From Alphaproteobacteria bacterium (GTDB lineage Bacteria > Pseudomonadota > Alphaproteobacteria > Rs-D84): a stretch of DNA of 64,000 bases. How positions within the stretch are numbered: position 1 is the first letter of the stretch; each line of letters opens with the position of its first letter. The DNA is taken from the NCBI GenBank assembly GCA_015062485.1, contig SUUO01000003.1, positions 28,026 to 92,025 on the forward strand, given 5' to 3'. Below the pieces are notes generated by a model. It did not search any database. It had not been told where the DNA came from and saw only the letters and a program-made list of their open reading frames with translations. A program made the translations under genes and the position numbers. Of this stretch, positions 3,855-63,965 are shown one piece after another.

Positions 3855-4331
3855 TTAAAACGCCTCAAACGCACCAAAAATCTTGCCACGAAAATCTGAT
3901 GATGTTACCATATAGCTTGCACAATTAAGCGCACAACTTGTCACACACTCCAACGCCGAAGTATAAACAGTAGTATTAGCCGGCAATCTAACATAACTAG
4001 ATAAAACTGGTTCGGTCATCTGGCACCAACAATACTTATGCACACCACCCATCGCGTTTTTCAATGGTCCCACCGACGGAGACCCCGAAGCCACCGTTGA
4101 ACAATGTCCATACATCATAACCGCAACATTTTCGCCCGTATAGGGCAGTGTGCATACCACCCCATGTTTATACGCGTATTGGCTAAAAGACGAATATGCA
4201 CTTGAATGCACACACGTTGTTTGCGACGCCAGATCTGCTCTGAACGGTGAACAAATATAAGACCGCGTTGGCGTGGCAGCATTCGCAGACAAAACGCCCC
4301 CAATTAAACAAAAACATAAAAATCTTTTCAT
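3855..4331 (-). CDS. secreted Cys-rich L-family protein
   Basis: RBS AGGAGAAAGGAAAATG. Signal peptide MKRFLCFCLIGGVLSANA. KYCWCQM ... ECVTSCALNC. 9 Cys. ORF 3855..4355 trimmed to the ATG at 4331. Confidence 0.85.
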   Translation of the reverse strand: MKRFLCFCLIGGVLSANAATPTRSYICSPFRADLASQTTCVHSSAYSSFSQYAYKHGVVCTLPYTGENVAVMMYGHCSTVASGSPSVGPLKNAMGGVHKYCWCQMTEPVLSSYVRLPANTTVYTSALECVTSCALNCASYMVTSSDFRGKIFGAFEAF

Positions 4332-4628
4332 TTTCCTTTCTCCTGTTGTTATCAATCCAACGCACCCGCGTCAGATAATCAAAAACCACCATTCATCAGG
4401 TGGTCAGGAGGTTGGAAACAATCATCGGAATTGTGTCGCTTATTCAATATATTCGCAACCCTCCTGACGACAAATATCAGGAGTTTAAATTTACCGTCCG
4501 CAAGACAGATATCCATTGCGAACGCCGATGCACGGGTTTCCACACCCCATTATGACAAAAACCGCCATAACAAGTATATTATAGCGAATTCTTTCAACTT
4601 AGGCAAATACTAAGATAAATAAAAATTA
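4332..4628 (-). promoter_or_regulatory. leader module copy 1 (promoter + conserved structured 5' leader, shortened variant)
   Basis: Read on - strand: -35 TTGCCT (4601-4606), 17-nt spacer, -10 TATAAT (4578-4583). A/T motif at 4613-4628. Key 7-mers 4413-4419 (tGGAAac) and 4536-4542 (gtTTCCa). Lacks the internal T1 hairpin. Confidence 0.75.
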
Positions 4629-7339: not shown

Positions 7340-7574
7340 AATAATTACCTTTTCCTGTATTTGATTTTAATGAATTTGTTATTGAAATGAAAGCCCAAAA
7401 ATACGCGGGCAGGGTGTAAAAAATCCTTAGGCGGCAATGCGCCAACAAAAAGCACTTGAAAAGATAAATTTATTTGAACTCATACCAATCATTATAATGC
7501 ACAATTATAAAATTTGCAAGTTTTACAAAGATAACTATTTATAGTATCCACCACTAGCCACTTACACTAACCAC

Positions 7575-7604
7575 TAAAAAATCCCGCCAATGGCGGGATT
7601 TTTT
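7575..7604 (-). terminator. intrinsic terminator after leuS
   Basis: ATCCCGCC aat GGCGGGAT flanked by an A6 run and a T run. Abuts the leuS stop codon. Confidence 0.85.
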
Positions 7605-9999
7605 ACTTTTTCACAACAAAATTTACCAATTTCTTTGGGACAACAATTGTCTTGATAATCGTTGCGCCATCTAACTTGGCACCCAATGCACTTTTTGCCA
7701 TTTCAACCAATGCATCTTCGGCCACGTCCGCCGGCGCAACAAATTCCGCACCACGTTTACCGTTAACGGACGCAACAATTGTCATCTCGGTCTCAACCAG
7801 TTTCGCCGCATCAAACGTTGGCCAATCTGACAACGCCAGCATTTCATCGTGTCCCAATTTTTCCCACATTTCTTCGGTCAAATGTGGTGCAAATGGATTT
7901 AACACGCGAACCAGCGTTTCGTACGCCGCCCGCGGCATACCACCCGAAAAGGCATTGATATATTCCATCATCGCAGAAATCGCCGTATTAAATTTCATAT
8001 TTTCAACGCGCTCTGTCACATCTGCGATTAACTTGTGCATCAGGCGTTCCTGGGCCCCGGTCATTGGTACATCTGTCAAATTATCAGACATATTTTCCAC
8101 ACGTTTCAAGAAACGCTGAACCCCGGCCAGTGCACCATCGGTCCATACCGCGTTATTTTCCCACGGCCCCAGTGACAACACCGAAACACGCCCCGCATCG
8201 GCCCCAACAGAATCAACCAAATCCGCCACCATAAAACCATTCCCACGCGACTTGGACATTTTATAGCCATCATTTCCCATCAACAACCCCTGGGCGGTAC
8301 GCTTTGCATATGGCTCTGGCGTATTAACCAATCCCAAATCATACAATGCGTGATGCCAAAAGCGCGAATAAATCAAATGACGTGTGTTATGCTCGTGCCC
8401 ACCGTTATAGTGTGTAACCGGCATCCAATTTTCCATCTGCTGACGCGAACAAAATTCTTTATCATTCTTTGGATCCAGATACCGCAAATAATACCACGAC
8501 GAACCCGCCCATCCCGGCATAGTATCCGTTTCACGTTTTGCAGGCGCCCCACAGTGCGGACACGTTGTATTTACCCAATCGGTTGCACGCGCCAATGGCC
8601 CTTCGCCATCATCGGTTGGTTTATAGTCCACCATATATGGTTGCATAATCGGCAATTCAGATTCATCAACCGGTACCCAGCCACATTTTTCACAATAAAC
8701 CATTGGGATTGGTTCACCCCAATACATCTGGCGCGAAAAACCCCAGTCTTTTAATTTATATTTTGTTGTGCCACGTGCAAAGCCGTGTTCCGTACCGTAT
8801 TTAATCGCCGCGGCAATGGCTTCTTCTTTGCCCATACCGTCCAAGAAAGATGAATTTATATGCGCACCGTCGCCTTCCCAAACCTTGTCTGGTTCACCAC
8901 CGGCTAAAACCGGGATAATTTCCAGACCGAATTTTTTCGCAAAGTCCCAGTCACGACTATCGTGCGCCGGCACCGCCATAATTGTCCCATACGCATAATC
9001 AACCAATACATAGTCCGATGTGAACACCGGGATTTCTTTGCCGGTATATGGATTCAATGCCATTATACCCTCTAAACGCACACCCGTCTTTTCCTTGGTC
9101 GCGTCTGTCCGTTCAATCTCAGATTTTGCGGCAGATTCTTTGATATACGCACGTACCGCATCCGCGTTTTTAATTTTACCTTCGTCCAGCCATTTTGCCA
9201 ACAACTTGTGTTCCGGGGCAATTACACAGAACGTCACACCAAATATAGTATCTACACGCGTTGTATAAACCGTCATAACATCATCCCCAACACGGAAATC
9301 TACATCCGCGCCGTGCGATTTACCAATCAGGTTTACCTCATCTTTTTTAATACGTTCATCAAAATCAACATCTTTTAAGCCGTCTAATAATTTATCGGCA
9401 TACTTAGACAACGCCAAATTCCACTGAACCTTCATTTTCTTTTCGACCGGTCCGTGACAGCGTTCACAACAACCATCTTCTAACTCTTCATTGGTCAGGT
9501 TTGTTTTGCACGCCGGACACCAATTCATCGGCAGGGCAGATTTATACGCCAACCCCGCCTTGTAAAACTGAATAAACATCCATTGTGTCCATTTAACATA
9601 TTCCGGATCAGACGTTGCAACACGTGTTTCCGGACTGACCGACCAACCAACACGATCAATCATTTTTGAATATGCTTCTATCAATTCCTTTGCAACGTCT
9701 GCCGGATGGCGTCCAATCTTGGTGGCATAGTGTTCACCGGCAATCCCCATTGCATCAAAACCCATTGGGAACAAAACATCATATCCACGTGCACGACGAA
9801 ACCGGGCCAAGACATCGATTCCCGAATAATTCATCATATGTCCCGCGTGCATCCCGGCACCGGACAAGAACGGAAATTCCACTAACGTATAAAAACGAGG
9901 CTTCGAACCATCATCTTTCGGTACAAACGCGCGTGCATCGCGCCAGCGTTTTTGCCATTTTGCCTCACGTTCGTGAATTTTTTTGATATCATCTGCCAT
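7603..9999 (-). CDS. leuS: leucine--tRNA ligase
   Basis: GMHAGHMMNY (HIGH-type) and KMSKSRGN motifs, plus CP1 editing region. 798 aa. Confidence 0.95.
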   Translation of the reverse strand: MADDIKKIHEREAKWQKRWRDARAFVPKDDGSKPRFYTLVEFPFLSGAGMHAGHMMNYSGIDVLARFRRARGYDVLFPMGFDAMGIAGEHYATKIGRHPADVAKELIEAYSKMIDRVGWSVSPETRVATSDPEYVKWTQWMFIQFYKAGLAYKSALPMNWCPACKTNLTNEELEDGCCERCHGPVEKKMKVQWNLALSKYADKLLDGLKDVDFDERIKKDEVNLIGKSHGADVDFRVGDDVMTVYTTRVDTIFGVTFCVIAPEHKLLAKWLDEGKIKNADAVRAYIKESAAKSEIERTDATKEKTGVRLEGIMALNPYTGKEIPVFTSDYVLVDYAYGTIMAVPAHDSRDWDFAKKFGLEIIPVLAGGEPDKVWEGDGAHINSSFLDGMGKEEAIAAAIKYGTEHGFARGTTKYKLKDWGFSRQMYWGEPIPMVYCEKCGWVPVDESELPIMQPYMVDYKPTDDGEGPLARATDWVNTTCPHCGAPAKRETDTMPGWAGSSWYYLRYLDPKNDKEFCSRQQMENWMPVTHYNGGHEHNTRHLIYSRFWHHALYDLGLVNTPEPYAKRTAQGLLMGNDGYKMSKSRGNGFMVADLVDSVGADAGRVSVLSLGPWENNAVWTDGALAGVQRFLKRVENMSDNLTDVPMTGAQERLMHKLIADVTERVENMKFNTAISAMMEYINAFSGGMPRAAYETLVRVLNPFAPHLTEEMWEKLGHDEMLALSDWPTFDAAKLVETEMTIVASVNGKRGAEFVAPADVAEDALVEMAKSALGAKLDGATIIKTIVVPKKLVNFVVKK

Positions 10000-10139
10000 A
10001 ATTTCGTCCTATGTGTTATTAAAATTACCTTAACCCCCAGTTTATATTTCACGCGCACATTATTCAAGTTTTTTTATAAAGATACACAAAAAAATCTAGA
10101 CTTTTTTGATTTTTCAATAAATACTTGTTACGGGGTGCA

Positions 10140-10316
10140 CATATGCCCCGGACATAGTGATGTGGCTTTGGCTTAGAACACCAAAACATTGAACGAAATG
10201 GCTATCACTTTATGTCCCGACCAAGCGGTCGGGATGTCGTTGCTCGCAAGACAACGAGGTCATCAATGTTTGACTGTTCTAACTCCCGACCACCACTTGC
10301 TATGGTGGTTTTTTTA
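10140..10316 (+). promoter_or_regulatory. candidate structured leader/attenuator or small RNA upstream of PAP2 gene
   Basis: TCCCGACC (10215-10222) and TCCCGACC (10284-10291) can both pair with GGTCGGGA (10227-10234). The second copy overlaps the terminator stem ACCACCA/TGGTGGT (10289-10309), which is followed by a T-run. Confidence 0.45.
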
Positions 10317-10339
10317 TTACAATCGAAAGGAAAGAAAAT

Positions 10340-10894
10340 ATGTCAAGACTTAGAACTCTTGTCGCGTTTTCTGTTTGCGGGGCATTGACTGCAAATGGCG
10401 CAATTGCGGGTGGACCTTTTTCATTTTCCAACCCAAATAAACTAAGCGATACATTTATGGTGATGACGGTGGCATACGCCCTGGGACTAAGCAGTACCGA
10501 AGATAACTTTGACGGTGCCATTGAATTAGCCACCAGTATTGCCGGTACCCAGATAGTTGCCGAAGGTATCAAGGGCCTTGAACTGGAACGCCGCCCAAAT
10601 GGTTCAGACTGGAAATCGTTCCCCAGTGGTCATTCCGCCGCCGCATTCAGCAGCGCAATGTTCGTCCACCGTCGTTACGGATGGAAACCGGCAATTATAC
10701 CATACGCAATGGCCGCGCTAACTGGTTGGGGCCGGGTACGTGCCGACGCGCACTATTGGCACGACGTCCTGGGCGGGGCGGCGGTATCTGCGCTTTTTAC
10801 ATGGATTGTTGTGGATAAATATGACGTGGCACAAAATATTACAGTTGCCGCCACCCCCAACGATATCCACGTCGGGTTCAAGACAGAATTTTAA
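10340..10894 (+). CDS. PAP2 superfamily (lipid) phosphatase, secreted/membrane
   Basis: Motifs ERRPNG, PSGHS, RVRADAHYWHD. RBS GAAAGGAAAG. Signal peptide present. Confidence 0.85.
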   Translation: MSRLRTLVAFSVCGALTANGAIAGGPFSFSNPNKLSDTFMVMTVAYALGLSSTEDNFDGAIELATSIAGTQIVAEGIKGLELERRPNGSDWKSFPSGHSAAAFSSAMFVHRRYGWKPAIIPYAMAALTGWGRVRADAHYWHDVLGGAAVSALFTWIVVDKYDVAQNITVAATPNDIHVGFKTEF

Positions 10895-11975: not shown

Positions 11976-12297
11976 GTGTTATTATTTATTTTTATTATTG
12001 TATTTTTTCTCTATACATTTTATAATCACGGTGTCAGCGGGATTTTCCACTGATGGGGTGTCAGAACCCGTGCATAACGCGTTTGGAATCGAAATCCAGC
12101 GCGCCATTGGCGTGTTTTTTCGTGTATTTTCCAAACGATAAACAAAAAAACTCCTGAACACACATAGGTGTCAGGAGGGTTGCGAATATATTGAATAAGC
12201 ACACAATTCGTTATGATTGTTCTGAACCTCCTGACCACTCGTTTATGCGCGGTGGTTTTTGTTTTTTCGCGAAGAACAAAGAAAGGGAGTGATACAT
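11976..12297 (+). promoter_or_regulatory. leader module copy 2 (only + strand copy)
   Basis: -35 TTGTAT 11998-12003, 17-nt spacer, -10 TATAAT 12021-12026. Key 7-mers 12061-12067 (tCAGAac) and 12219-12225 (gtTCTGa). T1 hairpin GCGCC att GGCGTG + T6. Confidence 0.8.
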
Positions 12298-12759
12298 ATG
12301 AAAAAACTTTTAACTTTAACCGCGGTTGGTGCGTTACTTGCCACACCCGCGAATGCAGTCCAAAAATGCGTACAGTTGCCCACAAAAGGCTCAGAGTGTT
12401 CTTTTAGCAACAGCTCTTTCAGCATTGAAATACCCATAAGCTGCAGTGCTGCTGGGATATCTATGAAGGCTATAGCGTTGTGTGCTTCTGCTTATGCTGA
12501 CAAAGGAGGTACGGTATCAGCAGGCTTAGTCGCAAACACAATAGATGGGGAAACTATGTCTTATGGTCCCTACTATTGTTGGTGCAAACTTGTTCAGCCG
12601 GTTGAATCAAAGTGGGTATTGGCTTCTAGTACAAGCGACGACGATTTCAGTTCCTGTTCTTATTCATGCTCCCAAAAATGCGCCAAAGCGATGCGGGCCC
12701 CTAAAGATGTTGAACTTAATATCTGGCCAATAATGCTGGAAAATTTATTAGTTGATTAA
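12298..12759 (+). CDS. secreted Cys-rich L-family protein
   Basis: MKKLLTLTAVGALLATPANA signal peptide. YYCWCKLVQPVESKWVL ... SSCSYSCSQKC. 9 Cys in the mature part. Confidence 0.9.
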   Translation: MKKLLTLTAVGALLATPANAVQKCVQLPTKGSECSFSNSSFSIEIPISCSAAGISMKAIALCASAYADKGGTVSAGLVANTIDGETMSYGPYYCWCKLVQPVESKWVLASSTSDDDFSSCSYSCSQKCAKAMRAPKDVELNIWPIMLENLLVD

Positions 12760-16480: not shown

Positions 16481-16506
16481 AAAAACGCCCGATTGGGCGT
16501 TTTTTT
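16479..16506. terminator. bidirectional intrinsic terminator
   Basis: A-run-CGCCC gatt GGGCG-T-run between convergent genes. Confidence 0.85.
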
Positions 16507-17242
16507 AATCCAACTTAAAACAGCCTGAACGCAACTCCCTGGCACGACGGCGCAGTTTTCGAAAAATCCGTGTATTGCGCGCCATTTTAAATGCCATTGT
16601 CATCGGGGTTATTGGCTGACTAATCCTGGTATACATACTGGCTTTGCGAATACGCTGTAATGAATCCAGATATGAATCTATAAAATCATACGGTTTGTTG
16701 TGCCGCAATATATAACGACATTGACGCATTATCACACGATAACGCCGATATGCCGCAACACGGATTTGTCGCAATTGATTATCCGGAATTCGCACCGGCG
16801 TCACAATCCACACGTCACGCAACAAAGAATAATGCGAACCATACATACAATCCTTGTGCAGGGGATTACACACATCACGACAATCAACCAGTTTTATATC
16901 AACCCCGCGACCAAATATTGATATATTAAACATACGCATCCACGCCCATTTTAATGCACGCAAAATTGTCCCTTCGTCCCCCGGCATTGTTGCGCGCAAA
17001 CGTGACAAATCCGCCACAATACAGACATCAACATCACTGAATTTATCCCAGTAATAATTTGTTATTGATCCGTGGATAAAAATATCCACAACATCAGATT
17101 TATCAATCGGCAATTTTGCAACCACCGACAAATATCGCACAAATTCCCAAACCGCCATTTGCAACGTCTGGTTAACCAACGGATTTAAATGCACGCGCGA
17201 TTCCCACACCCGCGGCACCAGGGCCCTGTGATACACGAACAT
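16505..17242 (-). CDS. Pol-beta-superfamily nucleotidyltransferase-like protein (paralog 1)
   Basis: IHGSITNYYWDKFSDVDVCIVAD fits the hG[GS]-x(9-13)-DhD NTase signature. About half of residues are identical to 44340..45074. ATG 17242 sits 10 nt after the S-gene stop with a GGGGG RBS. ORF 16505..17515 trimmed. Confidence 0.7.
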   Translation of the reverse strand: MFVYHRALVPRVWESRVHLNPLVNQTLQMAVWEFVRYLSVVAKLPIDKSDVVDIFIHGSITNYYWDKFSDVDVCIVADLSRLRATMPGDEGTILRALKWAWMRMFNISIFGRGVDIKLVDCRDVCNPLHKDCMYGSHYSLLRDVWIVTPVRIPDNQLRQIRVAAYRRYRVIMRQCRYILRHNKPYDFIDSYLDSLQRIRKASMYTRISQPITPMTMAFKMARNTRIFRKLRRRARELRSGCFKLD

Positions 17243-17598: not shown

Positions 17599-18045
17599 TT
17601 AAATTGCATCAACTAAAATTTCATCCATCAAACTCTCCATTTCTAAACCACTAGCACAGCGTTGAGCGCAATATTTTGCACAGCTTAATGAATCGGTAAA
17701 TGTGTGATTTAGCATCCATTTTGATAAAAATGGCGTTAATACACGACACCAACATGCGGTTAAATTCACGCTTGTTGCATCAGCGCTAACAACAAACAAT
17801 TCTTCATCAGAAAGAACATCGAATCGTCCATACCCCTGGTCTTGGGCGCAAACTCCAATGCCTTTTACGGAGATTTCATTGGAGGTATCATAATTACACG
17901 TCGCTCTCCAACCTATTATTGAGTTTTCTCCACCCATACCAGAGCGACATTCAGTGCCAGCCGCCAATCCCACGCATTGCACCACCGCCATTGCGGGGAC
18001 GGTCAAAATTGCACCAACCGCGGTTAAAGTTAAAATTTTTTTCAT
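17599..18045 (-). CDS. secreted Cys-rich L-family protein
   Basis: RBS AAGGAG. MKKILTLTAVGAILTVPAMA signal peptide. ACWCRVLTPFLSKWML ... LSCAKYCAQRC. 9 Cys. ORF 17599..18162 trimmed. Confidence 0.9.
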   Translation of the reverse strand: MKKILTLTAVGAILTVPAMAVVQCVGLAAGTECRSGMGGENSIIGWRATCNYDTSNEISVKGIGVCAQDQGYGRFDVLSDEELFVVSADATSVNLTACWCRVLTPFLSKWMLNHTFTDSLSCAKYCAQRCASGLEMESLMDEILVDAI

Positions 18046-18379
18046 TGTCTTATCTCCTTTCTGCTTTAAAAAAAAACAAAACCACACGTAAAACGGGTGG
18101 TCAGGAGGTTCGAAACAATTATAAGGAATTGTGTGCTTATTTTGTGCGGACACACCGCCCATTATTCACAACCCTCCTGACCTTTTATAGCCAGGAGACA
18201 TTTCATCCAGGACCACAAACGAAAAAACACGCCATATGGCGCGCCCGGTTCGGATATTTCGTTTTGTTCCAGACGCCTTATATCGGGTTTCGACACCCCA
18301 TCACGACCATCGATCGTAACAAGCAAATTATAACCAAATATTTCATCCAACGCAAATACTTAGATAAATAAAAGTTTAT
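18046..18379 (-). promoter_or_regulatory. leader module copy 3
   Basis: Read on - strand: -35 TTGCGT (18350-18355), 17-nt spacer, -10 TATAAT (18327-18332). A/T motif 18362-18379. Key 7-mers 18110-18116 (tCGAAac) and 18287-18293 (gtTTCGa). Confidence 0.8.
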
Positions 18380-18556: not shown

Positions 18557-18625
18557 ATGTATTCATTAATTGAACTTTGCACTATGCACTTTGAACTTTA
18601 ATAAAAATCCCCCGTTGGGGGATTT

Positions 18626-24911: not shown

Positions 24912-25358
24912 TTAATCAGATAAATTCGTAAAAAAAGCGGTTCTGTATGCTTGATAGCTAGAATGAATCAAAGAATCATAACAATAAGACGCGCAAGTTC
25001 GCAGGCAAGAATCACGTGTAAGATCGTCGTCTGCTAACACCCATTTAGATACGGCTGGACTTACCATTTTGCACCAGCAATAATCATTAGAATATGAAGC
25101 ATCACTTGCAGCAGTATAAACAATAGTATCTTTTTGATCTTGAGTTTTGCCTAATGTATCTGCACACACTGCTATAAATTGAACAGGAATCTCTTCATTG
25201 TTAGTGCCATAACATGTTGCGGTTAAAGAAGAAGCATAATCAGCTGGTTCTGTTCCCGTACATGTTTTTGTTGCATCCAATGCCACACATTTTTGTACCG
25301 CCAACGCGGGTGCGGCAAGTAATGCACCAACCGCGGTTAATGTTAAAAGTTTTTTCAT
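24912..25358 (-). CDS. secreted Cys-rich L-family protein
   Basis: ATG 25358 with RBS AAGGAGA. MKKLLTLTAVGALLAAPALA signal peptide. DYCWCKMVSPAVSKWVL ... DSCLRTCASYC. 9 Cys. Confidence 0.9.
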   Translation of the reverse strand: MKKLLTLTAVGALLAAPALAVQKCVALDATKTCTGTEPADYASSLTATCYGTNNEEIPVQFIAVCADTLGKTQDQKDTIVYTAASDASYSNDYCWCKMVSPAVSKWVLADDDLTRDSCLRTCASYCYDSLIHSSYQAYRTAFFTNLSD

Positions 25359-25674
25359 TTTCAATCTCCTTTCTTTTGTTTTATTCGCGAAAAAACAAAA
25401 ACCACACGTTTTTCACGAGTGGTCAGGAGGTTGGAAACAATCAATACGAATTGTGCTGCTTATTCAATATATTCACAGCCCCCCTGACACTAAATGCTCA
25501 GGAGATATTTGTCATTTGGTTTTCACACGAAAAAACACGCCATCGGCGCGTCGGATTTCGTTTCCAAACGCGTATTGCACGGGTTTCCACACCCCATTAT
25601 GACCATCGATCATAACAAACAAATTATAACCAAATATTTCATCCAACGCAACGACGAAGATAAATAAAAGTTTA
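25359..25674 (-). promoter_or_regulatory. leader module copy 4
   Basis: Read on - strand: -35 TTGCGT (25646-25651), 17-nt spacer, -10 TATAAT (25623-25628). A/T motif 25658-25674. Key 7-mers 25432-25438 (tGGAAac) and 25583-25589 (gtTTCCa). Confidence 0.8.
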
Positions 25675-25865
25675 GTGGGGTAATCAGTTTACAAAAACGT
25701 TTAACGTTTTTGTCATTCCGGGGCTTGACCCCGGAATCTAGGTGAAAGCAAATAAAAAAAGAAATATGACCTGGGTCCCGTGGTCAAGCCACGGGATGAC
25801 AGAATTTTTTTGCAAAAAATTCTGTTCGTACTTCCTGCGATAAACTTTTATTTATATAAGTAATT
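25658..25865. repeat. MITE-like palindromic element (copy M2), inverted relative to M1
   Basis: Same four hairpins as 18362..18556 in reverse order. Bounded by AGATAAATAAAAGTTTA (25658-25674) and its inverted copy ATAAACTTTTATTTATATAAGTAATT (25840-25865). Confidence 0.8.
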
Positions 25866-25906
25866 ATGTATTCCTCCACTTACCACTAACCACTTACACT
25901 AATCAC

Positions 25907-25936
25907 TAAAAAATCCCGCCGAATGGCGGGATTTTT
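25907..25936 (-). terminator. intrinsic terminator after rlmE
   Basis: A6-TCCCGCC gaa TGGCGGGA-T6. Confidence 0.85.
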
Positions 25937-27388: not shown

Positions 27389-27886
27389 TTAATTTACCCC
27401 CTGTGGTTTTGGTCCCGGTTGTTGCTGCATACGTGCCATAACCGCTTCCATACCACCCATACGCTGAATCATTGCCATTTGTTGTTTCATTTTTGTGTAT
27501 TGCTTTATCATATGTTCAACATCACGTACGGTGCAACCTGCTGTCTCGGCAATACGTGCCTTGGCATTGGCGAAAACTTTTTCTGGGTTTGCGCGTTCTT
27601 CGGCGGTCATCGCTTCCAAGATTTTGATTTGTGCATCGACACTGCCGTCTTTGATTTTTTCTTTCATTGCACCAACGGCATCTTTCATACCCGGCACCAT
27701 TTTCAACAGACCACTGAAATTGCTCATTTTCTTAATCTGCTTTAACTGCGCCAGCATATCATTCATATCGAATTGACCAGACATCATACGCTCGGCCGTT
27801 TCGCGCATACCAGATGGGATTTTTTCCGTCGTTGCTTCGTTTTCTACAACATTTTCTTGTTTTTTCTTTTTACCAAAGCCAAACAT
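27389..27886 (-). CDS. stand-alone SRP54/Ffh M-domain-like protein (no NG GTPase domain)
   Basis: RBS AAGGAG. GQFDMNDMLAQLKQIKKMSNFSGLLKMVPGM ... ILEAMTAEERANPEKV ... ARIAETAGCTVRDVEHMIKQYTKMKQQM aligns by eye with the E. coli Ffh M domain (FDLNDFLEQLRQMKNMGG...LPGM; MT.KER..PEII; RRIA.GSG..VQDVNRLLKQF). Confidence 0.75.
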   Translation of the reverse strand: MFGFGKKKKQENVVENEATTEKIPSGMRETAERMMSGQFDMNDMLAQLKQIKKMSNFSGLLKMVPGMKDAVGAMKEKIKDGSVDAQIKILEAMTAEERANPEKVFANAKARIAETAGCTVRDVEHMIKQYTKMKQQMAMIQRMGGMEAVMARMQQQPGPKPQGVN

Positions 27887-44339: not shown

Positions 44340-45074
44340 CTACTTTAATTGAAATTTTCTACTGCGTTGTTCTTTGGACAATCGTCGCAATCGCCGCAAA
44401 ATACCAGTATTACGAACCATTTTAAATGCCATAGACAATGATGTTATCGGCTGTTTATACTGCGTATACATACTTTGCGTACGAATTTTTTGCAAGTTTA
44501 CCAAATACGTATCTATATATTCCGGCAACATCTTCTGGCGCAACATAGCGTAACATTGGCGCATTATTGCGCGCTTTTTTACATATGCCGCCCGACGTAT
44601 TGTACGCAATTCCGATGCACTTAATCGAACAGGCGTATTAACCCAACAATCATTCACCAAAGAATACGATGGCCCAACACATTTATATCTTTCATCAAAA
44701 CCGTCATTGATATCGACTATACTTAAATCGACGCTACGACCATACAGCGAAAACCAAAACGTACGTTTCCACGTATGTTTTAGTGAATTTGTTATTACCG
44801 TAACATCTGTCCCATTCAGCATACTGCGCACACGCGACAAATCCGCAACAATACGTAAATCAATATCACTGTATTTATCCCAATAATAGTTAGTTATCGA
44901 CCCATGCACCAACGCATCTTGAATATCAGATGGCGAAATTGGCAATTTGACAACATCACCCAGATACCGCACAAATTCCCCCGCAATCATCATCAGTGAT
45001 TGTCGCACCAATGGATTTATTTTTGTCGGACTGTCCCAAACACGTGGCGCCAGCGTTTTATGATACCGAAACAT
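44340..45074 (-). CDS. Pol-beta-superfamily nucleotidyltransferase-like protein (paralog 2)
   Basis: VHGSITNYYWDKYSDIDLRIVAD. Collinear with 16505..17242. ATG is 11 nt after the upstream stop. Confidence 0.7.
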   Translation of the reverse strand: MFRYHKTLAPRVWDSPTKINPLVRQSLMMIAGEFVRYLGDVVKLPISPSDIQDALVHGSITNYYWDKYSDIDLRIVADLSRVRSMLNGTDVTVITNSLKHTWKRTFWFSLYGRSVDLSIVDINDGFDERYKCVGPSYSLVNDCWVNTPVRLSASELRTIRRAAYVKKRAIMRQCYAMLRQKMLPEYIDTYLVNLQKIRTQSMYTQYKQPITSLSMAFKMVRNTGILRRLRRLSKEQRSRKFQLK

Positions 45075-45085
45075 CCCATCCGCCC

Positions 45086-45631
45086 CTATTCTGTTGTTGT
45101 GGTTGAAGACGCTTCCTCTTCACCAGCGTAGGTCTTATAACTATTTTCTACGGGCGAAGATGTTGCGCCATCATAATAACAATTATCGGTAAAAATAAAT
45201 GTTCCCGTTTCATCAGAACGCTCAACATCTGCTTTCTTATAACATTCGTTTGCACTGACCGCACCTGTATCACTAGTATATTGAGCAGGGCAACTGGAAC
45301 AACTTCCGCCATTATTATACTGCCCACTATCACACGGCCGGCAAGAGTCGTGATACCATCTAAACAGATACCGTCCATTTGCCCAATATGATTGACATGT
45401 AGATTTTCTTAATTTTGTCGGATCATCTGGACAAAGACAATCGATATATCCGTTTGTACCCGTATAAAAATCTTCTGTCCTTGTTGCGCTAATGCAGTAT
45501 GAATCAGCATAAATTGCGGTGTCCCCTTCCCAACATCTAATTTTTACCGTCGTTGTTTCAAACGCGAAAGACTTTGAATATCCCAATGTCATCATCGCCG
45601 TAAAACCCGCCACGAAATAAGTTTTATTCAT
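45086..45631 (-). CDS. secreted Cys-rich protein with GCC2_GCC3/ephrin-receptor-like Cys repeat and S-type C-terminal motif
   Basis: Signal peptide. CRPCDSGQYNNGGSCSSCPAQYTSDTGAVSANEC. ...DETGTFIFTDNCYY. Acidic/Ser-Thr tail. Confidence 0.8.
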   Translation of the reverse strand: MNKTYFVAGFTAMMTLGYSKSFAFETTTVKIRCWEGDTAIYADSYCISATRTEDFYTGTNGYIDCLCPDDPTKLRKSTCQSYWANGRYLFRWYHDSCRPCDSGQYNNGGSCSSCPAQYTSDTGAVSANECYKKADVERSDETGTFIFTDNCYYDGATSSPVENSYKTYAGEEEASSTTTTE

Positions 45632-45935: not shown

Positions 45936-46030
45936 TTAGTGGTTAGTGTAAGTGATTAGTGATGGCACTATGATGTGCGGCATTTGCCACACACAAACAC
46001 TATCCACTAGCCACTCACACTAATCACTAA
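45936..46030. repeat. inverted pair of TTAGTG-type short-period repeats next to the rho terminator
   Basis: TTAGTGGTTAGTGTAAGTGATTAGTGATGG (45936-45965) versus CCACTAGCCACTCACACTAATCACTAA (46004-46030). The same tail occurs at 7548-7577, 25875-25908 and 49242-49270. Confidence 0.7.
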
Positions 46031-47957: not shown

Positions 47958-47987
47958 CAAAAAAATCCCCCATTTGGGGGATTTTTT
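47958..47987. terminator. bidirectional intrinsic terminator
   Basis: A8-ATCCCCC attt GGGGGAT-T6 between ssb and 47986..48912. Confidence 0.85.
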
Positions 47988-48912
47988 AATCAATAGTGTA
48001 ATGACACATTCCACCGCCCGATATATATGTACCATATTCATCTTTAAATGTACCAGATTCCCCACCGCCAACATCAACATAACAATCGGTTGGATTTATT
48101 GCACCGGGTGCACTGGTCGCATTTTCCGGCGAAACATCGTGATCACCCGGTAATGCATTGCACGCCATATTACCACCAGAAACAGTCATCGTTTCCACAT
48201 CCACCCTAACTTTGATTCCACCTGGGCAATAATCACCAGGTACACATTGCTCTTCCAATAGTTCCCCCGTATTCGTATCAATAGTTACATAATATCCAGA
48301 ATTAGAATATCCATAACAATCGCTTATCTCTGTGCGCGCACCATCAGAATGTATCAAAATTGGATGAAGCTCGTCGCACGGCACCACAATCCCATACATA
48401 TAAATATAACCATCTGGCAGACCTCCTGAAAAATCTGCACAAACATTCAATGCTTCGTCCATTGTTTCAAACCACATTCCGTTTTCAAATTCATCCTCTG
48501 TCGCGGGGATCCGTACAAGCACATAACCTTCATTACATTCCCCCATTGCTCTAAAACCAATAATCTGGCCATTAGTATCAAAATACGTAACAACATAATA
48601 GTTTCCTTTCTCGTCATAAAAATAACGAGACAAAGTAAGATCTTGACACTGTTCCAAACTTGTTAGCCCATTATTCACAAAGACATCACACGCGAATTGC
48701 CCATAATCAACATCACAAGAATCTTGATATTGCGTATTATCCTCGGGACACGGCTTGCATTCTGTTGCATCAGGCACATCATTATACGTATGTCCCGGAC
48801 ACGGCTCACACACACCAGACGACGTAACATAATAACCAACACCACATATTTCGGCATATCCTGGTGCGGTAAAAGCAAATAATAATAAAACCGTAAAACA
48901 AATCTTTTTCAT
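47986..48912 (-). CDS. secreted Cys-rich protein with ephrin-receptor-like Cys repeats and S-type C-terminal motif
   Basis: Signal peptide MKKICFTVLLLFAFTAPGYA. CGVGYYVTSSGVCEPCPGHTYNDVPDATECKPCPEDN. C-terminal GTFKDEYGTYISGGGMCHY. Confidence 0.8.
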   Translation of the reverse strand: MKKICFTVLLLFAFTAPGYAEICGVGYYVTSSGVCEPCPGHTYNDVPDATECKPCPEDNTQYQDSCDVDYGQFACDVFVNNGLTSLEQCQDLTLSRYFYDEKGNYYVVTYFDTNGQIIGFRAMGECNEGYVLVRIPATEDEFENGMWFETMDEALNVCADFSGGLPDGYIYMYGIVVPCDELHPILIHSDGARTEISDCYGYSNSGYYVTIDTNTGELLEEQCVPGDYCPGGIKVRVDVETMTVSGGNMACNALPGDHDVSPENATSAPGAINPTDCYVDVGGGESGTFKDEYGTYISGGGMCHYTID

Positions 48913-49226
48913 TTTTGTCTTTCTCCTGTTTGTTATAAAAAACAAAACCACCGCGCATAAACGAAGTGGTCAGGAGGTTCAGAACAATCAAGAAGAATTG
49001 TGTGCTTATTCAATATATTCGCAACCCTCCTGACACCTATGTGTTCAGGAGTTTTTATTTATCGTTTGGAAAGTACACGAAAAAACACGCCACCGGCGTG
49101 CCGGATTTCGATTCCAAACGCTTCTTGCACGGGTTCTGACACCCCATTATGGCAAAACCACCATAACATACTAATTATAACCGATTGTTTCCATTTGCGC
49201 AAATACTTATAGAAATAAAAGTTTAT
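48913..49226 (-). promoter_or_regulatory. leader module copy 6
   Basis: Read on - strand: -35 TTGCGC (49197-49202), 17-nt spacer, -10 TATAAT (49174-49179). A/T motif 49209-49226. Key 7-mers 48979-48985 (tCAGAac) and 49133-49139 (gtTCTGa). T1 hairpin CACGCC ggt GGCGTG + U6 at 49080-49100. Confidence 0.8.
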
Positions 49227-49268
49227 CCTAGTGCTTCTACTCTACACTAACCACTTACACTAATCACT

Positions 49269-56596: not shown

Positions 56597-57037
56597 CTAA
56601 TACGATAATAAGTTATCTAACATATACACTAAACCATATTGCGCATAATCTGCACTAGTACCGGCTAATCCTTCAAAATCCACACAACGAAAGGCACAAT
56701 TTCCGCTACAATATTGCCCATAATTCCACCCCGTAAACACCCATTTAGACACTGCCGGAGTCAGCAAACGACACCAACAATACCCAACAGGGTTATCACC
56801 GTCATCTTGTTGCAAATTTTCTGCCGTCTCTCCTGTATAATCACCCCCTTGTTTCGAACAAAAATAAGTACCGCGATACGTATCTGTACCACACTTTATG
56901 GTCCAATCAGAATCGTTATAGTCCGTTCCCCCGCTACAACTAGTTTGATTTGTAACATTTTTTACGCATTGGGTTGCGGCATTCGCAGACGCGGCCATTA
57001 TTGCACCGACCGCGGTTAATGTTAAAAGTTTTTTCAT
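56597..57037 (-). CDS. secreted Cys-rich L-family protein
   Basis: RBS AAGGAG. MKKLLTLTAVGAIMAASANA signal peptide. GYCWCRLLTPAVSKWVF ... QYCSGNCAFRC. 9 Cys. ORF 56597..57088 trimmed. Confidence 0.9.
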   Translation of the reverse strand: MKKLLTLTAVGAIMAASANAATQCVKNVTNQTSCSGGTDYNDSDWTIKCGTDTYRGTYFCSKQGGDYTGETAENLQQDDGDNPVGYCWCRLLTPAVSKWVFTGWNYGQYCSGNCAFRCVDFEGLAGTSADYAQYGLVYMLDNLLSY

Positions 57038-57356
57038 TTGTTTACTCCTTTTCTTGTTTTTCGCGAAAAAACAAAAACCACCGCGCAAAACGAAGTGGTC
57101 AGGAGGTTAGTAACAATCTCTAAGTATTGTGTGCTTATTCAATATATTCGCAACCCTCCTGACCAGTAAGATTCAGGAGTTTTTTTATTTAACGTTCGGG
57201 TTCAGATACGAAAAAACACGCCATCGGCGCGCCGGATTTCGCTTCCAAACGCTTAGAGCACGGGTTACTACACCCCATTATGGCAAACCGCCATAACACA
57301 CGTATTATAACCGATTGTTTCCATTTGCGCAATTGCAATGATAAATAAAAGTTTAT
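57038..57356 (-). promoter_or_regulatory. leader module copy 7
   Basis: Read on - strand: -35 TTGCGC (57327-57332), 17-nt spacer, -10 TATAAT (57304-57309). A/T motif 57340-57356. Key 7-mers 57108-57114 (tAGTAac) and 57264-57270 (gtTACTa). Confidence 0.8.
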
Positions 57357-63721: not shown

Positions 63722-63889
63722 AAAAACGGGGGATAAAATATGCAGAAATCAGGGTTTTTTAATTGCGAATTTATGCCAAGGAAAAACGTCCCATTGGATT
63801 CGGCATATGTTTTTCGTCTCTATGCCACGTATTATAACGCTTTGCGCGATTTTAGGCAAGCACGAAATTCATAGATAAATAAAAGTTTA
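63722..63889 (-). promoter_or_regulatory. family-type promoter (A/T motif + TTGCCT-17-TATAAT) with a short, unrelated leader
   Basis: Read on - strand: -35 TTGCCT (63854-63859), -10 TATAAT (63831-63836). AGATAAATAAAAGTTTA at 63873-63889. The ~100-nt leader lacks the conserved blocks and carries hairpin GGCATA..TATGCC. Confidence 0.65.
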
Positions 63890-63932
63890 GCGAAGTATTT
63901 TCATATCACATATCTCTTGTCTCATATCTCAT

Positions 63933-63965
63933 AAAAAAAAACCGCCGTATGGCGGGGATTTTTTA
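63933..63965 (-). terminator. intrinsic terminator of a gene ending at the right edge
   Basis: A9-CCGCC gtat GGCGG-GGATTTTTT. An open - strand frame (...FISELARQVQR stop at 63963-63965) enters from the right edge. Confidence 0.6.

Follow-up and report, generated by a model that had tools for sequence, protein, structure and literature searches.

A 220-nt RNA leader related to prophage anti-repressor control modules that probably decides whether transcription stops before secreted-protein genes of gut Alphaproteobacteria

In the Gifsy-1 prophage, the isrK–orf45–anrP locus gives rise to short terminated and to read-through RNAs (Hershko-Shalev et al. 2016; PMC4825925). In the inactive structure A of IsrK, the middle of the RNA pairs with about 30 nt downstream and a hairpin forms at the ribosome-binding site (RBS); in the active structure B, a local hairpin and an alternative RBS helix form, and the Shine-Dalgarno (SD) segment pairs with a downstream strand (PMC4825925). 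The CI RNA of P4, with its segments seqA and seqC, is cited as a structural homologue of IsrK (PMC4825925). Another described RNA, sRNA-Xcc1, occurs in multi-copy arrays in Xylella (PMC12189769) and before symE in Xanthomonas integron cassettes (10.1101/2025.06.18.660453). Here we analyze a stretch of 64,000 nt (contig SUUO01000003.1, positions 28,026 to 92,025; "the window") from an alphaproteobacterium of the order Rs-D84, to which the Candidatus Enterousia lineage with its genomes of mostly under 1 Mb belongs (PMC12306168). A literature search returned no paper on RNA elements of Enterousia or Rs-D84. The window holds seven copies, c1 to c7, of a promoter with a leader RNA of about 220 nt, of which c4 is the focal copy; the phage RNA of similar name is written C4 throughout. 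The leader is set before many secreted-protein genes, probably to decide before each of them whether transcription stops, and it is a diverged, chromosomally multiplied relative of a prophage anti-repressor control module.

An earlier note on this DNA had described the seven copies as a promoter-leader module more conserved than the genes behind it. The copies are present at the coordinates it gave, and their alignment holds block by block from the promoter to the RBS. TTGnnn and TATAAT with a spacer of exactly 17 nt are found in 7 of 7 copies and also in a further promoter at 63831-63859; in all seven, the first base of the 5' hairpin lies 5 nt beyond the end of TATAAT. An upstream motif ascribed to six of the seven copies holds only if two mismatches are tolerated: AAACTTTTATTTATC, the reverse complement of the string reported earlier, is exact in just c3, c4, c5 and c7 as well as at 63874-63888, deviates at 2 positions in c1 and c6 and is missing from c2, as had been said. 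At up to 2 mismatches it matches 10 times in the window, compared with 0.48 expected. The covariance model R1, which was built from the seven window copies (226 positions, trimmed from a leader of 265 positions), gives these copies 168-255 bits (E 1e-47 to 1e-72).

Copies and related features in the window (helix names as introduced below):
4378..4628, minus strand: c1, promoter and leader; 168.1 bits; internal hairpin T1 without U-run; gene at 3855-4334
10125..10316, plus strand: divergent eighth copy, missing from the earlier list; 19.6 bits, z -5.4; before a PAP2-family gene at 10340-10894
11976..12263, plus strand: c2, promoter and leader; 246.8 bits; gene at 12298-12759
18074..18377, minus strand: c3; 185.4 bits; inserts in P3 and in the P6 loop; gene at 17599-18048
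25390..25673, minus strand: c4, promoter and leader; 250.6 bits
45654..45932, minus strand: c5; 249.4 bits; gene at 45086-45631 for an unrelated Cys-rich protein
48941..49224, minus strand: c6; 254.7 bits; gene at 47986-48915 with an Ephrin_rec_like repeat
57070..57354, minus strand: c7; 243.5 bits; gene at 56597-57040
63831..63888, minus strand: promoter of the same type with UP-like motif and no leader RNA, before the gene of a 325-aa Cys-rich secreted protein

The last of these (63722-63889, minus strand) shares the UP-like motif and the -35/-10 geometry, but has a different 5' untranslated region of ~105 nt.

Between c4 and c5, 14 of 224 leader positions differ (94% identity), yet the two copies precede unrelated genes, whose coding sequences are 52% identical; over all pairs of copies, identity amounts to 60-94% in the leader versus 39-58% in the coding sequence. 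The similarity stops before the coding regions, which excludes a segmental duplication extending into them. That selection acts on an RNA regulatory element, one of the explanations offered previously, is strongly supported by compensatory changes, which are seen in the seven paralogues as well as in 119 copies of other species. The leader is a real structured RNA, the parts of which are listed for c4.

25659-25673, minus strand: UP-like motif
25646-25651, minus strand: -35 element
25623-25628, minus strand: -10 element
25617 down to 25390, minus strand: leader RNA
25596..25616, minus strand: P0, 5' hairpin, corresponding to hairpin 1 of IsrK; 9 of 10 pairs with compensatory changes in 119 copies
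25581..25595, minus strand: S1 (a1), 5' strand of P1, GGGGUGU-NNN-AAC, supported by covariation
25571..25577, minus strand: b1, 5' strand of P2 and main barcode, with 77 versions among 119 copies
25513..25570, minus strand: P3/P4 arm, including the T1 hairpin and U-run at 25530-25552
25498..25504, minus strand: S2, CUCCUGA, partner of S3 in helix P5 of the closed fold
25479..25488, minus strand: S3, GUCAGGGGGG, partner of S2 or of S4 (antiterminator, closing stem of the Xcc1-like fold), with three-way covariation
25456..25478, minus strand: P6 hairpin with the near-invariant loop GAAUAUAUUGAAUAAGC
25437..25455, minus strand: Halt, alternative hairpin CACAAU...AUUGU, whose loop is b' (25442-25448), the 3' strand of P2
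25421..25438, minus strand: a', 3' strand of P1 (25427-25438), running into S4 (CCUCCUGACC, 25421-25430)
25390..25424, minus strand: T2, 3' intrinsic terminator, GACCAC...GUGGUUUUUGUUUUUU, whose 5' arm has 4 nt in common with S4
25366-25371, minus strand: SD
24912-25358, minus strand: gene for a 148-aa Cys-rich protein with signal peptide

The seven copies alone yielded P0, P1, P2, P4, P5, P6 and T2 with 18 compensatory pairs (RNAalifold). In P1 and P2, the 5' end pairs over a long range with a region about 150 nt further downstream, the internal P3/P4 arm holds a terminator-like hairpin with a U-run (T1), and a second hairpin with a U-run at the 3' end forms T2. The variable triplets of the window copies (GGA, CAG, CGA and AGT within GGGGUGU-NNN-AAC) are matched by UCC, CUG, UCG and ACU within GUU-NNN-AACCUCC, and four to five of the seven copies show compensation in P2. 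This closed fold together with T2 is the minimum-free-energy structure of every window copy (z = -3.9 for c4).

One genome per species was scanned with a degenerate pattern, which gave at least 110 loci. Those listed all lie in metagenome-assembled genomes (MAGs) of gut Alphaproteobacteria, many of them named Candidatus Enterousia; a few labelled as other organisms are probably mis-binned. R1 matched 119 times in 100 loci and 13 times in the remaining ones, that is, more than 130 copies among the loci listed, and a sigma-70-type promoter stands at the same distance before P0 in every copy of every species. The 119 matches were aligned by fitting to R1, and the following values refer to this alignment. 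Paired positions can pair in 95.0% of cells as compared to 76.8% in shuffles, 50 of 57 pairs show double-sided changes, and the covariation score is 0.464, against 0.147 after shuffling and about 0.05 when the partners are slid by 1-3 columns. The variable triplet covaries with its pairing partner in 56-57 of the copies, a T1-like hairpin with U-run is present in 97 and the T2 U-run in 116. The same helices emerged from an alignment made independently of structure (MAFFT and RNAalifold, 54 diverse sequences), and the top mutual-information pairs all fall inside the structure or the alternative helices described below. Dimerization by kissing loops via a palindrome in P6, AAUAUAUU, was also considered and rejected, as the palindrome is not conserved in the family.

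The second fold centers on S3, which pairs with either S2 (P5) or S4; the two pairings are mutually exclusive and both are backed by covariation. Because S4 overlaps the 3' strand of P1 as well as the 5' arm of T2, each by 4 nt, S3:S4 pairing excludes both P1 and the terminator. The choice of S3 between S2 and S4, with S4 overlapping T2, is a terminator/antiterminator switch. The open fold is a three-way junction with P6 and Halt as its hairpins and S3:S4 as its closing stem. The S3:S4 helix is 98.3% paired with double changes in 4 of 8 pairs, and Halt is 98.5% paired with double changes in 3 of 5; Halt pairing outlasts a total replacement of its sequence between subtypes (CUAU/AUAG, GUCA/UGAC, CUCG/CGAG, CCUG/CAGG). 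S2, S3 and S4 change jointly across four sequence types, listed here with the segments of the eighth window copy.

Main type: S2 CUCCUGA; S3 GGUCAGGAGG, also given as UCAGGAGG; S4 CCUCCUGACC, also given as CCUCCUGA
Minor subtype: S2 CUCCAAC; S3 GUUGGAG; S4 CUCCAACC
Type of locus L076 and window 10216-10294: S2 UCCCGAC; S3 UCGGGA; S4 UCCCGACC
Phage clade type: S2 CACCAUA; S3 UAUGGUGGUG; S4 CACCACC
10125..10316, plus strand, segments of the eighth copy: S2 UCCCGACC; S3 GGUCGGGA; S4 CUCCCGACC; Halt stem GUCA...UGAC

An alternative local fold of S1, GGGG...CCC, places the variable triplet in a loop, and in a forced open fold the GGGG of S1 is free to pair in this way with a conserved CCC. Pairing of S1 with S2 in the open fold is 92% paired and shows nearly no covariation. 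According to the folding energies, the closed fold with T2 has an advantage of 5-13 kcal/mol over the best open fold, also at the transcript length of the decision point; termination is therefore the thermodynamic default.

The open fold, derived independently from covariation, is also the fold in which the family matches a described RNA. The earlier note had not recognized a known RNA family, which is true at Rfam thresholds: at gathering thresholds, the whole window contains two tRNAs only, and readings as a signal recognition particle (SRP) RNA or as a tRNA- or T-box-like element, which we also considered, find no support in Rfam. It does not hold for distant kinship: while belonging to no Rfam family by threshold, the element is distantly related both to sRNA-Xcc1 and to the isrK/c4-a1b1 modules found in prophage anti-repressor control regions. 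The 3' part of the copy at locus L017 aligns end to end with sRNA-Xcc1 (RF02221; 34.9 bits, E 1.2e-4; gathering score 53 bits), and the phage copy L138 scores 25.3 bits against the same model. In the L017 alignment, the closing stem corresponds to S3:S4, hairpin 1 to P6, hairpin 2 to Halt and the U-rich junction to the 3' strand of P1 (a'), with an ACC tail after S4. Conversely, the model R2, built solely from 3' modules in the open fold, finds the E. coli sRNA-Xcc1 exactly at 2486-2564 when run with filters off (29.8 bits, E 2.5e-7; next match 9.1 bits); with default filters it gives no match in E. coli or P1. For comparison, this bona fide E. coli locus scores 79.6 bits in Rfam. An end-to-end alignment also exists between isrK (RF01394) and the 5' part of c4, albeit a weak one (19.5 bits versus a gathering score of 50); in it, hairpin 1 of isrK coincides with P0, hairpin 2 with GGGGUGUGGAAACCC and the terminator with T1. 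Weak matches to c4-a1b1 (RF03163; gathering score 46.7) were obtained for L005 (19.7 bits) and L017 (13.2 bits).

The record of the E. coli locus itself (E2855 prophage, L158 2360-2610) annotates no RNA, yet the intergenic region holds sRNA-Xcc1 at the score given above. Its order of parts is a promoter, a CUCAAAA hairpin (a1), CAAGUAG (b1) and a terminator with eight U, followed within sRNA-Xcc1 by CUACUUG (b') and UUUUGAG (a') and then by a hairpin with the loop CUCAAAA (a2). The b2 segment, CAAGUAGG, lies at the SD of a gene for an ORF6N anti-repressor-like protein, which adjoins an icd-like gene. sRNA-Xcc1 thus looks like the C4 analogue of an immI-type module.

In the immI leader of P1, a1 is located in a hairpin loop, followed by b1, a terminator-like hairpin, the three-way junction of C4, a2/b2 and ant. 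C4 carries b' in its second hairpin loop and a' in the junction, and a2 and b2 lie at the icd RBS. The isrK model matches the a1b1 leader of P1 directly upstream of C4 (35 bits). Rfam scans of copy c4 and of other family copies returned no C4 match, and R1 and R2 scored low on P1 (values below), so that the link to C4 is topological only. An ACC/ACU tail comes after S4, as in sRNA-Xcc1 and in C4, which in P1/P7 is released by RNase P. Viral contigs were also screened for the invariant P6 loop and, in a second step, searched with R1. A divergent member with the full architecture is present in 12 related AT-rich phage contigs (L138 at 7690-7960, as well as L118, L121, L125, L128, L134, L139, L140, L143, L146, L147 and L152; 33.5-60 kb in the ten with a listed length), where it lies in the leader of an Ant gene (PHROG 130, 5e-31). 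In this clade, the P6 loop does not differ from the Enterousia one, and the 3' hairpin has no U-run; its loop carries a2 (CUCAAAA), and b2 (UACUAAG) overlaps the SD. Among 50,697 annotated phages, blastn with the RNA of this clade as query matched none. Separately, the IMG/VR viral contig L113 carries, at 9872-10592, a full main-type leader (118 bits) before the gene of a 162-aa Cys-rich signal-peptide protein; it also carries open reading frames (ORFs) for a transcriptional repressor (PHROG match) and, as read from the sequence, a DnaB-like helicase.

After the T2 U-run, an SD and a same-strand ORF follow within about 20-35 nt in about 90% of copies. This leaves no space for another promoter, and the genes therefore depend on read-through. 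A signal-peptide-like N-terminus is predicted for 87 of 98 downstream ORFs as opposed to 153 of 499 background ORFs. The products comprise small Cys-rich families, porin-like beta-barrel, fibre-like and autotransporter-like proteins and an ATP-binding cassette (ABC) exporter, with XRE-type helix-turn-helix (HTH) proteins downstream of two variant copies; a Pfam search recognized almost none of the controlled proteins. At L055 1713-2123 (minus strand), the minor subtype is represented by a tandem pair of copies with one promoter each; no ORF goes with the first, and the second lies before an XRE-type HTH gene. The c4 protein belongs to a family with paralogues encoded at 12298-12759, 17599-18048 and 56597-57040 and an invariant Cys framework, CWC...P..S.W; its homologues are limited to the same Alphaproteobacteria MAGs. 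Its AlphaFold model is confident (pLDDT, the per-residue confidence score, 82.5), and a fold search of the PDB with this model gave no match (best E 0.7), suggesting that the family may adopt a new fold.

The barcode strands differ strongly between copies, with 77 different b strands among 119. Within each MAG, the (a, b) pairs are unique among all sampled copies, and orthologous copies in different MAGs retain the same barcode. Such uniqueness would fit an insulation of the copies from each other, yet it is expected by chance given the many b types.

Further observations concern the surroundings of the copies. Tandem heptamers in 4-5 copies (units CCACTAA, TTAGTGA, TTGAACT, TCATATC and ACCACTA) lie directly upstream of leader promoters, at 25876-25909, 45936-45963, 49243-49268, 18570-18599, 63901-63933 and 7550-7577, and CACTAA-like runs are similarly placed upstream of copies in other MAGs. 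GC-rich palindromic units, GTCATCCCGTGGCTTGACCACGGGAC and TCCGGGGTCAAGCCCCGGAATGAC, recur between genes, in the window at 25690-25800 (minus strand) and upstream of L082, L016, L102, L055 and other loci; they look like a separate family of repetitive extragenic palindromic (REP)-like repeats. Directly downstream of the c3 and c5 genes lie two paralogous genes (16505-17200 and 44340-45074, both minus strand) whose products match a nucleotidyltransferase fold weakly (NTP_transf_2, Polbeta). Finally, the 165-aa protein encoded at 27389-27886 (minus strand) consists of the M domain of SRP54/Ffh alone (PF02978, 2.4e-23). Its ORF starts 43 nt downstream of the uvrA stop codon (27929), which leaves no room for an upstream NG domain, so that the M domain is stand-alone; a stand-alone domain of this kind, binding signal peptides and RNA, thus occurs in a genome whose leader regulon consists of signal-peptide proteins.

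Taken together, we hold with moderate confidence that each copy is a promoter with a cis-acting leader of ~220 nt that decides termination at T2, about 25-35 nt ahead of the RBS, is related to the phage modules and has its balance set by RNA-RNA pairing. We infer that the regulated step is termination. In the closed fold, a1 and b1 would pair over about 20 nt with a' and b' (P1 and P2), the decoy S2 would hold S3, T2 would form and transcription would stop, leaving the gene off. In the open fold, S3:S4 would block T2 and the gene would be transcribed. Formation of the a1b1:a'b' duplex would dissolve the Xcc1-like fold and pass S3 to S2. By analogy with IsrK, C4 and P4 CI, the balance between the folds may be set by RNA-RNA pairing in cis and possibly in trans, where the potential partners would be RNAs from the same copy, either short and T1-terminated or processed 3' modules; the variable a and b helices would then serve as a private barcode for each copy.

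Several results weigh against this proposal. All Rfam matches of the family, in a scan at E up to 10, remain below the gathering scores, and copy c4 itself gives no sRNA-Xcc1 match at this cutoff. Neither the full-length R1 model searched against the immI region of P1 (7.2 bits) nor R2 on C4 of P1 (5.0 bits) gave a significant match, and the R1 and R2 E-values are rough owing to a shortened calibration. The Enterousia copies are without a2/b2, the targets on which the phage mechanism is defined: the longest word common to the a1b1 and post-S4 regions measures 4.74 nt versus 4.63 nt in shuffled sequences. The alternative helices vary in few lineages, the 33 double-change cells corresponding to about 4-6 independent events. 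Transcription start sites, termination at T1 and T2 and read-through are all predicted. Lastly, the closed fold being much more stable, the open fold may form rarely without some factor, and such a factor, if a small molecule or protein, could make the element a riboswitch-like sensor rather than an RNA-RNA device.

That sensor is the foremost alternative, although we regard it as unlikely. Here, the closed five-way junction (P2, P3, P5, P6 and an A-rich linker) would be an aptamer for a small molecule, an ion or an RNA-binding protein, binding would shift the stability of the closed fold and thereby set T2 termination, and the likeness to phage modules would reflect ancestry only. The large multi-stem fold supported by covariation, the classical terminator/antiterminator platform, the near-invariant unpaired P6 loop, kept even in distant phage copies, and the linker GAAAAA all fit an aptamer, as does a closed default state that seems to call for some effector. 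Most of the conserved unpaired nucleotides are accounted for by alternative pairings, however, and the characterized relatives IsrK, C4 and P4 CI work by ligand-free RNA-RNA pairing (PMC4825925). Rfam gives no riboswitch match, the regulon offers no metabolic clue, consisting almost entirely of unannotated secreted proteins, and so many copies in a genome of <1 Mb would be unusual for a riboswitch. We give still less credence to the idea that the copies are primarily genes for trans-acting small RNAs (short T1-terminated IsrK-like RNAs, processed Xcc1-like RNAs or both) with unlinked targets, their position before genes being secondary. Each copy has its own strong promoter and two predicted terminators, IsrK and sRNA-Xcc1 are described as trans-acting (PMC4825925, PMC12189769), and a few copies lack an adjacent ORF or stand in tandem (L055:1952-2123, L075:1383-1598, L038:1739-1969); yet such genes would explain neither the SD and ORF that follow about 90% of copies with no promoter room nor the S4/T2 overlap and three-way covariation that tie the fold to the terminator, and no second target sites recur downstream.

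Two further explanations are very improbable in our view. The earlier note had also proposed a mobile or gene-converted promoter cassette, akin to a miniature inverted-repeat transposable element (MITE), whose conservation would reflect recent spread. Some exchange is indeed visible, c5 being a mosaic with P0 and P2 helices as in c6 and the remainder c4-like, and the near-identity of the c4 and c5 leaders before unrelated genes and the copy on phage contig L113 point the same way. A mere cassette leaves the compensatory changes in 50 of 57 pairs unexplained, though, as well as the differences between c4 and c5, which lie mainly in stems with pairing preserved, the fixed position and orientation relative to the start codon and the barcodes shared by orthologous copies of different MAGs; neither terminal repeats nor target duplications were seen. 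A leader-peptide attenuator, in which the terminator would respond to translation of a short ORF that begins either at the invariant AUG within AUGGGGUGU or behind the SD-like S3, could draw on the near-invariance of AUGGGGUGU, on the resemblance of S3 (AGGAGG) to a Shine-Dalgarno sequence and on the corresponding Gifsy-1 sequence, which is the orf45 RBS (PMC4825925). We rejected it as the ORF from the conserved AUG ranges from 7 to 110 codons, is not conserved in sequence and has no SD upstream; moreover, the variable triplet changes at all three positions in covariation with its partner, and the family at large does not retain the UUG found behind S3 in the window copies.

If a switch of this type operates, its reach would be considerable: at one copy per about 8 kb, as in the window, in a genome of <1 Mb, much of what the organism secretes or displays on its surface would be under one RNA element, a domesticated relative of the anti-repressor RNA module of temperate phages reused regulon-wide in a reduced genome. 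Computational findings seldom come with covariation for both conformers of a switch, and this support opens the mechanism to direct tests by mutagenesis. The analysis joins isrK, c4-a1b1 and sRNA-Xcc1, which were described separately, in one two-state architecture that suggests a role for the poorly understood sRNA-Xcc1 in prophages and integron cassettes, and the a/b barcodes may constitute a natural set of orthogonal RNA switches. Going further, one can speculate, with considerable doubt about the scheme as a whole, that every secreted or surface gene in these gut symbionts with reduced genomes has its own barcoded switch derived from phage immunity. Short T1-terminated or processed Xcc1-like RNAs would act in trans only on copies with the same a/b barcode, forming a private feedback loop that is bistable as in lysogeny and would generate RNA-based ON/OFF heterogeneity of the cell surface without DNA rearrangement; sRNA-Xcc1 and isrK/c4-a1b1 would each be half of a single conformational switch that is widespread among prophages and integron cassettes.

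Element for element, the Enterousia leader maps on the C4 module of phage P1 and the IsrK module of Gifsy-1. In terms of the plan common to P1 and the E. coli sRNA-Xcc1 locus, a1 corresponds to S1 with its triplet and b1 to the 5' strand of P2; the 3' strand of P2, located in the Halt loop, takes the role of b', and the 3' strand of P1, located in the junction, that of a'. With IsrK, the leader shares its own promoter and the succession of a 5' hairpin, a middle hairpin (hairpin 2) that displays a1 in its loop, a spacer with b1 and a Rho-independent terminator, and structures A and B find one-to-one counterparts in P1 with P2, P5 (S2:S3), the GGGG...CCC hairpin and S3:S4. The output of IsrK, however, is translation of orf45 and the coupled anrP from a single prophage locus before an anti-repressor gene, whereas here there is an intrinsic terminator, no conserved small ORF and many chromosomal copies before secreted-protein genes.

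The immI c4 RNA of P1/P7 (RF01695) has the same order of parts, with a' and b' complementary to the upstream a1 and b1 (the P1 and P2 helices), and the phage clade of the present family likewise precedes ant. The a and b sequences of these phages reportedly set specificity and underlie the heteroimmunity of P1 and P7, a finding that goes back to Citron and Schuster in 1990. C4 blocks icd translation at a2/b2, and Rho-dependent termination comes next, while the Enterousia element has an intrinsic terminator overlapping the closing stem and an additional decoy segment, S2; its genes in the window and the MAGs encode secreted and surface proteins, anti-repressor control being confined to the clade of 12 phage contigs.

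The open fold coincides with sRNA-Xcc1 in the closing stem, hairpin 1 with AAUA...AAUA, hairpin 2, the U-rich junction and the ACC tail. Like the Enterousia leader, sRNA-Xcc1 sits behind its own promoter in a 5' leader before a same-strand gene, including ORF6N anti-repressor-like genes in E. coli and APSE prophages. It has been described as a stand-alone trans-acting small RNA of 87 nt, whereas here it forms one conformer of a 220-nt switch; and where the E. coli locus has a2 in the loop of the following hairpin and b2 at the SD, the Enterousia copies have a terminator in place of both. P4 CI, compared here from the literature, resembles the proposed mechanism in that an antisense RNA processed from the same leader transcript pairs with complementary segments upstream and downstream and causes premature termination. 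Relative to the phage versions, the Enterousia element thus differs in dispensing with a2/b2, in using an intrinsic terminator as output, in its decoy S2 and in serving chromosomal secreted-protein genes. With the classical terminator/antiterminator/anti-antiterminator leaders (pyr, trp and riboswitch platforms), it shares a segment, S3, whose choice between two partners decides an intrinsic terminator, but here this decision appears to be coupled to a long-range antisense-like duplex whose sequence is specific to each copy.

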